From an uncultured delta proteobacterium (lineage in GTDB: Bacteria; Myxococcota_A; UBA9160; SMWR01), in contig CAWHTE010000005.1 of NCBI GenBank assembly GCA_963832165.1, positions 311,509 to 375,508 of the forward strand: a DNA stretch of 64,000 nt. Reading direction: 5' to 3'. Under the pieces are notes generated by a model, which worked only from the letters and a program-made list of their open reading frames with translations, had not been told where the DNA came from and searched no databases. Below are positions 1,136 through 57,744 of the stretch, piece by piece. The translations under genes and the position numbers were made by a program. Every line of letters begins with the position of its first letter. Within the stretch, counting starts at the first letter, position 1.

Positions 1136-1163
1136 TCTTCGGTTGCGTGGGCTTCCCGGTTGA
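1136..1163 (-). promoter_or_regulatory. Candidate sigma28-type promoter for the sgmX-like gene
   Basis: TCAA-N16-ACCGAAGA. Confidence 0.5.
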
Positions 1164-1182
1164 GGTTCCCGTGGGGGAAAGT

Positions 1183-1629
1183 TCAGCCGTCCAGCACGTC
1201 CAGCAGCGCCGCGAGTCCGAGCGTGTAGCTGCGAGCGCCGAAGCCCGCGACGAGTCCGACCGCGATCCCCGAGACATAGGAGGTATGGCGGAAGGACTCG
1301 CGCGCGAACACGTTGGAGAGGTGGACCTCGACCACGGGCATCCCCGTGGCCGCGAGCGCATCGCGCAGCACCACGCTCGTGTGGGTGAGCCCGCCCGGGT
1401 TGATCAGGATGCCGTCCGCCCAGCCGATCGCGGCGTGGATGCGGTCGACGAGCACTCCCTCGTGGTTGCTCTGGAAACACTCCACCTCGGCGCCGCGCTC
1501 CTTTGCGGAGTCGGCGAGCGCGGCGTCGATCTCCTCGAGCGTGGTCGCCCCATAGATCTCGGGCTCGCGCGTTCCGAGCAGGTCGAGGTTCGGGCCGTGG
1601 ATGACCTGAATGCGGCGCAGCTCGCTCAA
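1183..1629 (-). CDS. aroQ: Type II 3-dehydroquinate dehydratase
   Basis: [30 protein letters not shown] motifs; TTG start after G-rich RBS. Confidence 0.95.
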
Positions 1630-1660
1630 TGGCCCCCCTCCGACTGGCGAGTGGCGACCC

Positions 1661-2035
1661 TCAGAGCTCCTGGCGGATCGCCAGCAGATGCCGGCGAATG
1701 AGATAGCGCGCCTTGCCGAGGTTGCCATCGGCCGAGAGCACGAGCGCGAGGAACGTGTCGCCATCGATCGGCCGGAACACGAGGCTCATTCGCGCGAGCG
1801 AGACGACCGTCTCGCTCACGGCGCCGCCGCCCAGTGCGTCGGCCGCTTTGCGGATCTCCTCGAGGATGCGCGAGAACTCGATCCCGGCGCTGCCGATGTC
1901 CTCCTGGAGCGGGCCCTCCGGAATCCGATCGGTCACGTACTCCTCGATCGGAATTCCGTCCGCGCCCATCAATACGGCGCCGAGGCCTCCGCCGCACTCC
2001 TCCACGATGCTGCGCAGAATCGATCGGAACGTCAT
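1661..2035 (-). CDS. mglC: Roadblock/LC7 protein, MglC (MglB paralog)
   Basis: MTFRSIL...MGADGI...DGNLGKARY matches the MglC pattern; position downstream of pilQ. Confidence 0.8.
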
Positions 2036-54778: not shown

Positions 54779-55578
54779 CCGCCCTGCTGGTCGTCGACAT
54801 CGGAAACACGAACGTGTCGCTCGGGTGGTTCGACTACCCCGTGACCGCGAACGGCGAGGGTCCCGGCGTTCTCTCGCACCATTGGCGCGTGGGCACCCAC
54901 CGCGATCACACGAGCGACGAGGTCGGGCTCGTGATCACGAGCCTGTTCGCCCAGGCCAAGCGCGACGTCCACGAAGTGTCCGACGTGATCATCTCGAGCG
55001 TGGTCCCCCCGCTCCTGCCGATCTACGAGCGCGTCTCGCAGAAGCTCTTCGAGCGCCCGCCGCTGATCGTAGGCCCGGGCATCCGCACCGGCATGCCCGT
55101 GCGCTACGAGAACCCGCGCGAGGTCGGCGCCGACCGGATCGTGAACGCGATCGCCGCCTACGAGATGTTCGGCGGCCCCGTGATCGCGGTCGACTTCGGC
55201 ACCGCGACCACGTTCGACTGCATCTCCGCCGACGGGGAGTATCTCGGCGGCGCGATCTTCCCGGGCATGCTCACATCGATGGAGGCGCTGTTCGAGCGCG
55301 CATCGATGCTGCACCGCGTGGAGATCGCTCGGCCCAAGTCCGTGATCGGAAAGACCACGACCGCCGCGCTGCAATCGGGGCTGCTGTACGGCACCGCAGG
55401 CGTCGTCGATTCGATGGTGGAGCGCATCCGCAAGGAGCTCGGCCCCGCGCGCGTGGTCGCGACGGGCGGGCTGGCGGGTCTGGTCTCGAACGAGAGCGCC
55501 GCGATCGAGCGCGTCGAGCCGTTCCTCACGCTCGAGGGACTGCGAATCATCTATGAAAAGAATCGCAAGCGCGCGTAG
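54775..55578 (+). CDS. coaX: Type III pantothenate kinase
   Basis: DIGNTN, SSVVP, GADR, DFGTATT, ATGG. Confidence 0.95.
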   Translation: MTALLVVDIGNTNVSLGWFDYPVTANGEGPGVLSHHWRVGTHRDHTSDEVGLVITSLFAQAKRDVHEVSDVIISSVVPPLLPIYERVSQKLFERPPLIVGPGIRTGMPVRYENPREVGADRIVNAIAAYEMFGGPVIAVDFGTATTFDCISADGEYLGGAIFPGMLTSMEALFERASMLHRVEIARPKSVIGKTTTAALQSGLLYGTAGVVDSMVERIRKELGPARVVATGGLAGLVSNESAAIERVEPFLTLEGLRIIYEKNRKRA

Positions 55579-55579
55579 C

Positions 55580-55660
55580 GCGCGCGTAGCGAGACAAGTT
55601 TCGCGCAGCGAGCCGAAGGCGAGCGAAGACCAGAAGGAATGCCGAGCGAAGACCCATCAG
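55580..55660 (+). repeat. 42-bp repeat (55594-55636) nested within a degenerate copy of itself
   Basis: gcgcgtagcgag[acaagtttcgcgcagcgagccgaaggcgagcgaagaccagaag]gaatgccgagcgaagacc. Confidence 0.75.
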
Positions 55661-55686
55661 GTGGATACCGGAGAAGGAGCCGCCCC

Positions 55687-57744
55687 ATGAAAGACATCAA
55701 GGTCAGCGACACACACAACTTCGCGCTCGTGGGGCACGCACACGACGGAAAGACGTCGCTCGGCGAGGCGATCCTGCACGCGGCCGGCGCCACCCACGCG
55801 CTCGGCAGCGTCGTCGCGGGCACCTCGGTGCTGAACCAGCTGCCCGAAGAGAAGGAGCGCAAGTCGACGATGACGTCGTGCGTGTTCAGCTACGACGCGG
55901 GTGGCAAGCACTACTCGCTCGTCGACACGCCCGGCGATTCGAACTTCGCGGGCGACGCGCAGATCGTGCTGCAGCGCCTCGACGGCGCAGTGCTGGTCGT
56001 GTCCGCGCTGGACGGCGCACGCGTGGGCACCGATCGCTCGTACCGCTTCTGCCGCGAGCACGGAATCCCGATGGTCGCGTTCGTGAACGGTCTCGACCGC
56101 GAGCGCGCGTCGCTCGACACGGCACTCGAATCGATCGCGGCGCTCTCGGCCAAGCCCGTGCTGCTCACGCTGCCGATCGGCGAGCACGAGGGACTCCGCG
56201 GCGTGGTGGACCTGTGGACGGGCCGCGCGCACACGGCCGCGGGCGAGAGCGATCCGCCGGCCGAGCTCGCCGACGAGATCGCGGCAGCGCGCGAGAAGCT
56301 CGTCGAAGACGCCGCGGAGTGCGACGACGCGATCCTCGAGAAGTACCTCGAGGAGGGCGAGCTCTCGAGCGAGGACCTGCGCCAGGCGCTCGTCTCCGGC
56401 ACGCGTTCGGGCGCGATCCTGCCCGTGCTGTGCGGCTCCGCGACCCACGAGCTGGGAATCCGCCCGCTCCTGCACGCGATCTCGGATCTTCTGCCGTCTG
56501 CGGCGGACCGCGCGCGCGCGTTCTCGAGCGCGAGCGGTGAGGAGATCGCGGCCGATCCCGACGCACCGTTCACGGCACAGGTGATCAAGACCGCGATCGA
56601 CCGCTACACCGGCACCCTCTCGATCTTTCGCGTCGTCTCGGGCCGGATCCACCCCGACACTCCCATCCTCGACGCGACGCGCGACGGCAAGGAGCGGATC
56701 GGGAAGCTGTTCCTGATGCGCGGCAGCGAGCACGTCGAGGTGCCGGAGGCCGGCCCGGGCGACGTCATCGCGGTGGCCAAGCTCAAGCACGTTCACACGG
56801 GCGATGCGCTCACTGCGGAAAAAGGCGGTGTGGCGCTTGCCCCGATCACCATTCCCCAGGGTGTCATTTCCTATGCCATCCGCGCGAAATCAAAGGGAGA
56901 TGAGGATAAAGTCTTCACCTCGCTCGGCCGACTCGTAGAGGAGGATCCGACCCTCCAGCTCGGGCGCGATCCGTCCACCGGCGAATACCTGCTCACGGGG
57001 CGCGGAGAGCTGCACGTGCGGATGACGGTCCACAAGCTGCACCGGATGTACGGCGTCGACGTGGACCTGCGCACGCCGAAGGTCCCCTACCGCGAGACAG
57101 TCAAGAAGAAGGCCGAGAACGTCGAGGGGAAGCTCAAGAAGCAGAGCGGCGGCAAGGGAATGTTCGGAGTCTGTTACCTCACGATCGAGCCCCTGCCGCG
57201 CGGCGCGGGCATCGAGTTCTCCGACGAGATCGTCGGCGGCTCGATTCCGCGCAACCTGATCCCGGCCGTCGAAAAGGGCGTGATCGAGGCCGCGCAGGTG
57301 GGACCGCTCGCGGGCTACCCGGTCGTGGACGTGCGCGTGCGCTGCATCGACGGCAAGCACCACTCGGTCGACTCGAACGAGATGGCGTTCAAGCTCGCGG
57401 GATCGTTCGGCTTCAAGGCGGCGATCGAGGCCGCCTCGCCGACGCTGCTCGAGCCCGTGATGAACCTGCACGTGTCGGTGCCCGACCACTGCGTCGGCGA
57501 CGTGATGGGCGACCTCTCGAGCCGGCGCGGACGCGTCGGGTCCGGCGAGGCACAGGGCACCTCGCAGGTGATCGCGGCACAGGTACCGATGTCGGAGCTG
57601 CTCGAGTACGCGAGCGCGCTCACGAGCATCACGGGCGGCCAGGGCGAGTTCCACATGGAATTCTCCCACTACGACGAGGCGCCCTCACACGTCCGGGAGA
57701 AGGTGATCGCCGAGGCCCAGGCCAAGAAGAACGAAGCGTCCTGA
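55687..57744 (+). CDS. fusA2: Divergent elongation factor G paralog (EF-G II type)
   Basis: GHAHDGKT, DTPGD, NGLD, EEDPT, KQSGG, SVDSNEMAF, LLEP. Confidence 0.9.
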   Translation: MKDIKVSDTHNFALVGHAHDGKTSLGEAILHAAGATHALGSVVAGTSVLNQLPEEKERKSTMTSCVFSYDAGGKHYSLVDTPGDSNFAGDAQIVLQRLDGAVLVVSALDGARVGTDRSYRFCREHGIPMVAFVNGLDRERASLDTALESIAALSAKPVLLTLPIGEHEGLRGVVDLWTGRAHTAAGESDPPAELADEIAAAREKLVEDAAECDDAILEKYLEEGELSSEDLRQALVSGTRSGAILPVLCGSATHELGIRPLLHAISDLLPSAADRARAFSSASGEEIAADPDAPFTAQVIKTAIDRYTGTLSIFRVVSGRIHPDTPILDATRDGKERIGKLFLMRGSEHVEVPEAGPGDVIAVAKLKHVHTGDALTAEKGGVALAPITIPQGVISYAIRAKSKGDEDKVFTSLGRLVEEDPTLQLGRDPSTGEYLLTGRGELHVRMTVHKLHRMYGVDVDLRTPKVPYRETVKKKAENVEGKLKKQSGGKGMFGVCYLTIEPLPRGAGIEFSDEIVGGSIPRNLIPAVEKGVIEAAQVGPLAGYPVVDVRVRCIDGKHHSVDSNEMAFKLAGSFGFKAAIEAASPTLLEPVMNLHVSVPDHCVGDVMGDLSSRRGRVGSGEAQGTSQVIAAQVPMSELLEYASALTSITGGQGEFHMEFSHYDEAPSHVREKVIAEAQAKKNEAS
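56907..56934 (+). promoter_or_regulatory. Candidate intragenic sigma28-type promoter
   Basis: TAAA-N16-GCCGACTC preceded by an AT-rich codon patch. Confidence 0.45.

Follow-up and report, generated by a model that had tools for sequence, protein, structure and literature searches.

A lone FliA/WhiG-family sigma factor and its predicted surface-motility regulon in uncultured Myxococcota

Sigma-28 is the textbook flagellar sigma factor, and in most studied bacteria it drives flagellar genes. Polar flagella of Vibrio and Pseudomonas are governed by a four-tier hierarchy in which sigma-54 and an enhancer-binding protein (EBP) act above the sigma-28 gene, and the encoded FliA drives chemotaxis and cyclic di-GMP (c-di-GMP) genes from promoters with a −35 element of the TCAAG type. 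Non-flagellar members of the sigma-28 or group-3 class occur elsewhere, including the sigma-28 of Chlamydia, that of non-flagellated Legionella species and cyanobacterial SigF, which serves pilA. Here we analyse a 64,000-nucleotide (nt) stretch of DNA from an uncultured member of the Myxococcota, hereafter the window, that encodes a sigma factor of the FliA/WhiG (sigma-28) family together with type IV pilus and putative cell-polarity genes, and we describe the promoter class that this sigma factor is predicted to read.

Sigma-28-family regulons that are not flagellar and that take in pili and c-di-GMP genes are already known from Actinomycetota (PMC8325347 and PMC12871210). In the unicellular Rubrobacter radiotolerans, WhiG is controlled by an (RsiG)2–(c-di-GMP)2–WhiG switch, and three of its 12 mapped promoters lie in a type IV pilus cluster and five of the 12 lie before diguanylate cyclase or phosphodiesterase genes (PMC8325347). 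The predicted regulons of the WhiG1 and WhiG2 clades of Actinomycetota include pili, chemotaxis and c-di-GMP genes (PMC12871210). Sporulation in Streptomyces and pili in Rubrobacter have been used to argue for the wholesale co-option of a sigma factor together with its signal input.

The locus described here adds a Gram-negative lineage in a second phylum, with the same promoter code before a myxobacterial-type toolkit for pili and polarity, about the transcriptional control of which little has been learned. We put at roughly 80% the probability that a lone FliA/WhiG sigma factor switches on a surface-motility and signalling regulon through promoters of the form T(C/A)AAG-N16(15)-CCGAT(A/G). 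The support at the sequence level consists of a fixed spacing, an intergenic position, co-orientation with the next gene and retention at orthologous places across an order of Myxococcota. The sigma factor would thus be a likely master switch for surface motility, not for flagella, in a circuit that would run from sigma-54 and an EBP to sigma-28, from there to the pilus machinery, signalling genes and further EBPs, and through these to sigma-54 targets. Relative to the Actinomycetota systems, the phylum, a larger regulon that centres on pilus and polarity genes of the myxobacterial kind, the sigma-54 input and the predicted leaderless targets appear to be new; the sigma-54 promoter of the sigma gene and the leaderless appearance of many targets are new observations of this work. 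We found no report of sigma-28 or FliA control of pili in Myxococcota in the open-access literature (main texts, without supplements), and none of the Lysobacter papers listed there has a title on FliA control of pili. The organisms are uncultured and the findings are computational throughout.

A bipartite promoter motif and its candidate sigma factor

The window (G000:C5:311509-375508) belongs to a genome of 5.54 Mb in 11 contigs, with 70% G+C and 89% completeness. The original prediction had described a bipartite motif that recurs at eight places in the window, and all eight sequences were found where, and in the orientation in which, it had placed them. Aligned matches give the consensus TCAAG (more rarely TAAAG, TCAAC or TCAAT)-N16-CCGAT(A/G). 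The recurrence was borne out by counts of the plain pattern, which are free of annotation: TCAA-N17-CCGATA, equivalent to the N16 plus 8-mer of the original prediction, occurs 15 times in the genome against 0–3 times at each of the 15 other spacings in the range scanned (8 to 23), and T[AC]AA-N17-CCGATA occurs 19 times against at most four at any other spacing. Within the window, three strict matches were observed where 0.04 are expected from 100 shuffles, none of which reached three. A codon-usage gene finder predicted 4926 genes covering 87.6% of the genome; 32 of the 37 best matches to a position weight matrix (score at least 19) fall outside these genes, usually less than 100 nt upstream of a co-oriented one. 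At a score of at least 17 there are 45 matches at the canonical offset against 8–12 at control offsets, and at 14.5 or above there are 101 against 48–60. Chance is ruled out for the motif as a class.

The gene at 49576 that had been taken for fliA was confirmed as a member of the FliA/WhiG family. Its 254-amino-acid (aa) product scores 283.4 bits against TIGR02479 (cut-off 189.6) and 257 bits against the FliA subfamily model NF005413 (cut-off 201), and it has the group-3 architecture of regions 2, 3 and 4 without region 1.1 (Pfam). The best model is that of WhiG (NF004935), at 301 bits under a cut-off of 343, so that the protein falls short of the WhiG equivalog level. Streptomyces WhiG controls sporulation. 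The closest solved chains are 6pfv (251 bits) and 6pfj (247 bits), which we take to be Streptomyces WhiG, both with about 48% identity as counted from the match line; the E. coli FliA chain 6pmi reaches 196 bits. No other gene in the genome exceeds the FliA/WhiG-family cut-off, and five further sigma-70-family genes score 78–114 bits on the FliA model. In the 80 relatives retained for comparison the sigma factor is 83–98% identical, with a median of 87% (80 species-level genomes) against 65–74% for its neighbours.

Two lines of evidence tie this protein to the motif. Published sigma-28/WhiG promoters have a −35 element TAAA and a −10 element GCCGATAA (PMC8325347), and the consensus reported for WhiG2 is T(A/C)AA-N16-GCCGATAA (PMC12871210); the motif matches both base for base. 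The spacer that had been proposed as one nucleotide longer than usual is therefore not a novelty: N16 is the WhiG2 spacing (PMC12871210), and the sgmX promoters discussed below mostly have N15. Second, among 48 same-order genomes compared, the 45 that encode the sigma factor hold 3–15 exact TCAAG-N16-CCGATA matches each, 365 in sum against 14 for a reversed-pattern control, and the three that lack it (G143, G178 and G221) hold 0, 1 and 0. On these grounds the sigma factor of the window very probably reads the motif.

The searches for an anti-sigma factor were negative within their scope. For FlgM (PF04316), all six frames of the 89%-complete genome were searched and nothing reached E ≤ 0.001, which leaves room for a divergent FlgM. 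For RsiG, the search covered the exact motif E(X)3S(X)2R(X)3Q(X)3D only; five matches were obtained in six frames, two in giant open reading frames (ORFs) and three in short or odd frames, none of them plausible or paired. When 18 motif-adjacent proteins of unknown or poorly defined function were compared with 12 from two relatives, one 364-aa protein was shared (42.5% identity), no small protein was shared, and no good anti-sigma candidate emerged.

Conserved sites at pilus, polarity and signalling genes

According to Pfam and NCBIfam scans, the pilus region of the window is of the myxobacterial type and comprises, in order, an sgmX-like TPR gene, aroQ/aroB, pilQ-P-O/N-M behind a small HTH gene (the HTH-pilMNOPQ block, 3819..9740, − strand), a divergent pilR2-like EBP gene and then pilR, pilS, pilC, pilT and pilB. 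About 30 kb further on, the sigma gene sits in the arrangement EBP(−) | EBP(+) - sigma(+) | PP2C(−) | romR-like response regulator(+) (Table 1). The EBP(+) gene is NtrC/AtoC-like by NCBIfam, and its synteny with the sigma gene is kept in relatives. All of the nearest relatives are uncultured Myxococcota metagenome bins.

Table 1. Predicted genes and promoters in the window (promoter scores are position-weight-matrix scores)
Feature	Position	Strand	Details
sgmX-like TPR gene	1-1119, extends past window edge	−	NF052243 best match
Weak sigma-28-type promoter, sgmX-like gene	1137..1163	−	TCAAC-N16-CCGAAG; score 12.1
pilQ secretin	3819-6566	−	Pfam Secretin/AMIN
pilP	6572-7045	−	Pfam PilP
pilN/O	7165-8220	−	Pfam PilN, PilO
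pilM	8386-9462	−	Pfam PilM_2; TIGR01175 281 bits
HTH_3 gene	9489-9740	−	Pfam HTH_3
Sigma-28-type promoter, HTH-pilMNOPQ	9804..9830	−	TCAAG-N16-CCGATA; score 24.0
Sigma-28-type promoter, pilR2-like EBP gene	9915..9941	+	TCACG-N16-CCGATA; score 11.2, weaker
pilR2-like EBP gene	9950-11266	+	GTG start 8 nt past promoter hexamer
pilB, pilT, pilC	14433..18532	−	T2SSE and T2SSF matches in differing frames; each over several reading frames
Sigma-28-type promoter, pilB	18608..18634	−	TAAAG-N16-CCGATA; score 19.6
EBP gene	46172-47566	−	Behind degenerate sigma-28-type site
Degenerate sigma-28-type promoter remnant, EBP gene 46172-47566	47574..47600	−	Score 5.6
NtrC-type EBP gene, directly 5′ of sigma gene	47895..49109, start perhaps 47727	+	Response_reg, Sigma54_activat, HTH_8
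Sigma-54-type −24/−12 promoter	49475..49489	+	TGGCACAGTGCGTGC; about 90 nt before sigma start codon
FliA/WhiG-family (sigma-28) sigma gene	49576..50340	+	254 aa; Sigma70_r2, r3, r4; TIGR02479
PP2C (Stp1-type) phosphatase gene	50419-51150	−	NF033484 Stp1_PP2C 257 bits, cut-off 230
Sigma-28-type promoter, PP2C gene	51208..51234	−	TCAAG-N16-CCGATG; score 22.3
Sigma-28-type promoter, romR-like gene	51414..51440	+	TCAAT-N16-GACGATA; score 14.7
romR-like response regulator gene	51494-52828	+	Receiver domain

We then scored orthologous regions from relatives, comparing the number of sites at the canonical offset with the numbers at 12 control offsets. This matrix scan of the genome and its relatives, which the original prediction had called for, found the sites kept at orthologous promoters. 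The HTH-pilM site scores at least 18 in 26 of 27 relatives (controls 0–1), and the pilB site at least 17 in 25 of 28 genomes (27 relatives and the window's own locus, L163), with none at the 12 controls. Across genomes, TAAAG-N16-GCCGATAAC, the sequence given for sigma-28 in textbooks, is the usual form of the pilB site. The PP2C site reaches at least 18 in 51 of 67 relatives (controls 0–1). The romR-like site, always in the unusual form TCAAT-N16-G(A/T)CGATA, reaches at least 14 in 34 of 67 (controls 0–2). For the pilR2-like gene, with TCACG as its −35 element, a site of at least 12 is present in 19 of 27 relatives (controls 0–1), and its end lies 7–10 nt from the start codon. The sgmX-like gene is preceded in 28 of 29 relatives by a site of at least 14 in the same place, of the form TCAAG-N15/16-CCGATA; in 24 of the 28 the spacer is one nucleotide shorter (N15), so the promoter class tolerates both N15 and N16.

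Six of the eight sites first claimed (sgmX-like, HTH-pilM, pilR2-like, pilB, PP2C and romR-like) are therefore conserved. The seventh, ahead of the EBP(−) gene, is canonical (at least 18) in 41 of 43 relatives with no control matches, and this genome has a degenerate version that scores only 5.6, having lost one nucleotide and acquired a T>A change in the −10 element, which reads CGAAGA. The eighth, inside fusA2, scores 8.0, a level without excess over wrong spacings, and is thus indistinguishable from chance. No sigma-28-type site was found on the EBP(+) strand in 43 relatives. On the minus strand at 44005-47566, the EBP gene is followed by a PAS histidine kinase gene and a receiver gene, and the whole operon would be under the sigma factor in relatives.

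The polarity names in this region are descriptive. The 1055-aa sgmX-like protein has SgmX (NF052243) as its best model, at 227.8 bits against an equivalog cut-off of 1800, and owes its label to this best match, its length and its position beside the pil cluster. The romR-like protein consists of a receiver domain and a remainder rich in Ala, Pro, Asp and Glu; RomR of Myxococcus has an N-terminal receiver, a Pro-rich linker and an acidic C-terminal region. The libraries used hold no RomR model, and homologues in a protein atlas and a large homologue search carry only generic names, 'response regulator' or 'CheY-like'.

Predicted regulon, sigma-54 input and flagella

To define regulon content, we annotated 88 downstream proteins at 52 intergenic sites scoring at least 15 (Pfam, NCBIfam); the regulon would comprise roughly 35–45 promoters. 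Pilus genes behind the motif are HTH-pilMNOPQ, pilB, a Flp-TadE-RcpC-secretin (Tad) operon and, with a weak site, a PilA-like pilin. Chemosensory genes are represented by two operons, methyl-accepting chemotaxis protein (MCP)-CheW-CheY-Hpt and CheY-CheA-CheW-CheW, another MCP and a single-domain CheY. For c-di-GMP there are two receiver-receiver-GGDEF proteins (one of them above the PleD cut-off, with 508 bits against 474), HAMP-GGDEF, response regulator (RR)-GGDEF and EAL genes, a PilZ protein and a giant TPR gene with a PilZ gene after it; four of the 10 GGDEF genes have a site of at least 17, against 0.08 expected (hypergeometric p = 7.6e-7). Polarity and cytoskeletal genes comprise the sgmX-like and romR-like genes, an MglB-like Roadblock protein, bactofilin and DivIVA. 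Signalling genes comprise PP2C, a TPR-Ser/Thr kinase, FHA proteins and histidine kinases, and envelope genes comprise M23 peptidases, LysM and AMIN-like proteins, Wzy_C, glycosyltransferases and DsbD. Many of the downstream proteins are without a family match. The proposed pilus and polarity regulon is thus supported by sequence for those two groups and is too narrow in scope, given the Tad, chemosensory, GGDEF, EAL and PilZ genes. In content the wider set is similar to what classical FliA regulons hold besides structural genes, and it is strikingly like the regulon of Rubrobacter WhiG.

Rubrobacter WhiG is the closest precedent for this target set, with which it shares pil operons, c-di-GMP genes (here four of 10 GGDEF genes, EAL and PilZ) and the promoter consensus. 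Unlike the RsiG and c-di-GMP control described there, no exact RsiG motif was found here in a plausible frame; the regulon is also larger, adding chemosensory, Tad-pilus and myxobacterial polarity genes, and the sigma gene lies behind a sigma-54 promoter. The Chlamydia, Legionella and SigF cases are alike in that a sigma factor is kept without a flagellum for other genes, and they differ in target sets and lineages; we know of none among them that combines type IVa and Tad pili, chemosensory operons and myxobacterial polarity genes.

Many target genes start close to the promoter. Among 40 intergenic sites with a score of at least 17, the start codon of a long, coding-like ORF lies 7, 8 or 9 nt after the hexamer in two, three and six cases (11 of 40), and any other distance from 0 to 60 nt accounts for at most two start codons. 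In two relatives, 13 of 28 sites have a start codon 6–9 nt past the hexamer, and the pilR2-like and EBP(−) promoters share this short distance. The pattern fits a transcription start about 8–10 nt past CCGATA, which would make the mRNAs leaderless. Such mRNAs would come from roughly a quarter of the target promoters, those with the start codon 7–9 nt past the −10 hexamer. One of the five best sites (G000:C4:173699-173725, locus L005; score 24.3) is followed by about 440 nt without a convincing ORF and then by a short rpoZ-like gene; a small RNA or a long leader may be transcribed from it.

The sigma gene itself is preceded by a sigma-54-type promoter (Table 1), the position of which fixes the start codon at 49576. 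In the gap that separates the upstream EBP gene from the sigma gene, all 72 relatives compared carry the pattern TGGCA[CT]-N5-NTGC, and none of the 72 carries it at spacings N2–4 or N6–8. A sigma-54 promoter before a sigma-28 gene and an EBP encoded nearby are the marks of a flagellar-type cascade. No sigma-28-type site precedes the sigma gene in the window (best scores −3.0 and −6.9). In a few relatives a strong one (score 24–25) lies between the EBP and sigma genes (L099 5535-5561, L112 5510-5536), which suggests autoregulation of the sigma gene in those relatives. Two or three EBP genes themselves sit behind sigma-28-type promoters. Elsewhere in the genome, the ATG of the PilA-like pilin gene is preceded, at a distance of about 145 nt, by a canonical sigma-54 promoter, TGGCATGACCCTTGC (G000:C3, L040 positions 200-214), with a weak sigma-28-like site (score 16.8) just upstream of it. 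The sigma gene would thus be transcribed from a conserved sigma-54 promoter, probably through the EBP encoded just upstream, and would drive further EBPs in a sigma-54 to sigma-28 to sigma-54 cascade that would resemble that of a polar flagellum, without the flagellum. The Vibrio and Pseudomonas FliA systems are alike in having sigma-54 and an EBP upstream, chemotaxis and c-di-GMP targets and a −35 element of the TCAAG type; unlike there, no flagellar genes or FlgM were found in this genome, and the flagellin genes of its relatives are of the sigma-54 type.

The genome check for flagellar genes that the original prediction had called for turned up none of Flagellin_N, FHIPEP, FlgM, Flg_bb_rod and FliG_C in the 89%-complete genome. 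Among 301 Myxococcota genomes sampled, 169 have a FliA-family protein over the cut-off and 122 have flagellin. None of the 10 genomes sampled from the window's family has flagellin, and flagellated members occur in five other families of the order. Five flagellated relatives encode one FliA-family sigma factor each, an orthologue of that in the window. Upstream of the flagellin genes of 12 flagellated relatives, the motif was found in 0 of 18 regions at any of 13 offsets, and 15 of the 18 have sigma-54 promoters. With none of the flagellar families found in the 89%-complete genome and the 18 flagellin regions free of the motif, late flagellar control of the classical FliA kind was not found.

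In two near-complete flagellated genomes, strict sites precede genes for PilB, HTH-pilM, an SgmX-like protein, pilin, PP2C, an EBP and an MCP, as well as RR-GGDEF(-EAL), kinase and FHA genes. No core flagellar genes are among the 28 annotated targets of these two relatives, a count that covers the first gene after each strict site and, in G031, 15 of the 24 sites. From the sites shared with flagellated relatives and the motif-free flagellin genes, the predicted pilus and signalling regulon predates flagellum loss, is independent of it and coexists with flagella in relatives instead of replacing them. In the flagellin genes with sigma-54 promoters (15 of 18; L223-L240), these take the form TGGCAC-N5-TTGC, and many of the 5′ leaders in the same set carry, immediately ahead of the ribosome-binding site, a conserved hairpin around CACCAAGGATCGGTG that presumably resembles a CsrA-type binding site.

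Weighing the alternatives

Between 12700 and 18600 on the minus strand, the coding sequences of pilS, pilC, pilT and pilB are broken up, each occupying two or three frames, with intact flanking genes. Relative to intact relatives of 600–640 aa, pilB shows at least five frame switches, and identity in its correctly framed pieces is up to 96–100%. Outside the window, frame splits are present in an RR-GGDEF gene (G000:C3:252026-252500) and in a second T2SSE ATPase gene (G000:C2:12339-13160).

That the pilus arm is a decaying relic in this genome, with pilB, pilT, pilC and pilS as pseudogenes and the sigma factor serving mainly signalling, Tad pili and the envelope, would account for these splits and for sgmX and EBP promoters that are weaker here than in relatives. 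We nevertheless consider it unlikely: pilMNOPQ is intact, the framed pieces of pilB are at best nearly identical to those of relatives, and the pattern suits local indel errors in an 11-contig assembly in which the C2 T2SSE and C3 GGDEF genes are also split. A different sigma factor or a DNA-binding regulator might read what is a real promoter class, the FliA-family sigma then having an unseen regulon; the genome does encode the five other sigma-70-family genes, and the co-occurrence of sigma and motif depends on three sigma-less genomes. This is very unlikely, given the base-for-base consensus match (PMC8325347 and PMC12871210), the TAAAG-N16-GCCGATAAC form of the pilB sites, a bipartite structure, strict spacing and fixed start distance of 7–9 nt that suit a sigma factor and not a repressor or activator site, and a sigma factor conserved alongside three predicted target promoters in its own neighbourhood.

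The original prediction favoured a formerly flagellar sigma factor that was rewired to pili and polarity, and a version of this in which rewiring followed loss of the flagellum fits both the usual role of sigma-28 and the restriction of flagellin to other families of the order. It fails to fit the flagellated members, which already have sites at pilB, HTH-pilM, sgmX, PP2C, EBP, MCP and GGDEF genes, which encode a single FliA-family sigma factor and the flagellin genes of which are motif-free and of the sigma-54 type. We regard rewiring after flagellum loss as improbable; rewiring would at best be ancient, with flagellum loss leaving the sigma factor with a pre-existing regulon. Least credible of all, to the point of being negligible, is an artefact of composition or codon usage in a genome of 70% G+C. 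Loose patterns do show a 3-nt periodicity, and at a score of at least 8 the 720 genome matches at the canonical offset are in no excess over the 611–753 at in-phase control offsets. For strong sites, the sharp spacing peak, the shuffles, the intergenic location and positional conservation over dozens of species with almost no control signal rule the artefact out, and it holds only for the site inside fusA2.

Several observations weigh against the reading that the lone sigma factor switches on a surface-motility and signalling regulon. The matrix was trained on 38 canonical-spacing seeds, which makes the genome-wide score counts partly circular, a circularity from which the plain-pattern spacing histogram and the cross-species tests are free; below a score of about 14, most matches are chance. 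In this genome only conservation speaks for the sgmX, pilR2-like and romR-like sites, the EBP and sgmX promoters are weakened, and the broken pilB, pilT, pilC and pilS genes mean that the pilus arm may be decaying, or that the assembly is poor there. The names romR, sgmX and MglB are unsupported at family cut-offs. The link between sigma factor and motif is made of a family consensus and a co-occurrence that is supportive and not decisive, since the relatives are not independent and just three in-order genomes lack the sigma factor. Among the 20 sequencing runs listed as containing part of this DNA, each with a share of at most 0.13, none is an RNA data set. Neither the FlgM family nor the exact RsiG motif yielded an anti-sigma factor. 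Flagellar targets besides flagellin are possible, in view of the first-gene scope and the G031 coverage noted above.

Extended to the order as a whole, the sigma-54 to sigma-28 cascade could be a master circuit for surface life in uncultured soil and sediment Myxococcota, covering type IVa and Tad pili, chemosensory arrays, polarity proteins and c-di-GMP turnover, largely leaderless, with flagellin left to sigma-54 and with an undescribed type of anti-sigma factor, proposed because neither FlgM nor RsiG was found. We offer this wider picture tentatively, as something short of an even bet. The reading of a lone sigma factor and its surface-motility regulon gives a concrete list of about 40 promoters and predicts sigma-54 input, widespread leaderless transcripts and an anti-sigma factor to be sought.

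Two further observations concern the pilus genes and the relatives. At G000:C8:37400-44700 the genome carries a second, intact pilus-like set, with a PilB-like ATPase (full T2SSE match) and a distant PilM-like gene, and this set has counterparts in most relatives. Many relatives that are 85–96% identical in the sigma factor (L053-L132) are labelled 'uncultured Spirochaetales', 'Opitutales' or 'Gammaproteobacteria' in public records; these labels look wrong, because the gene order matches that of the Myxococcota bins.

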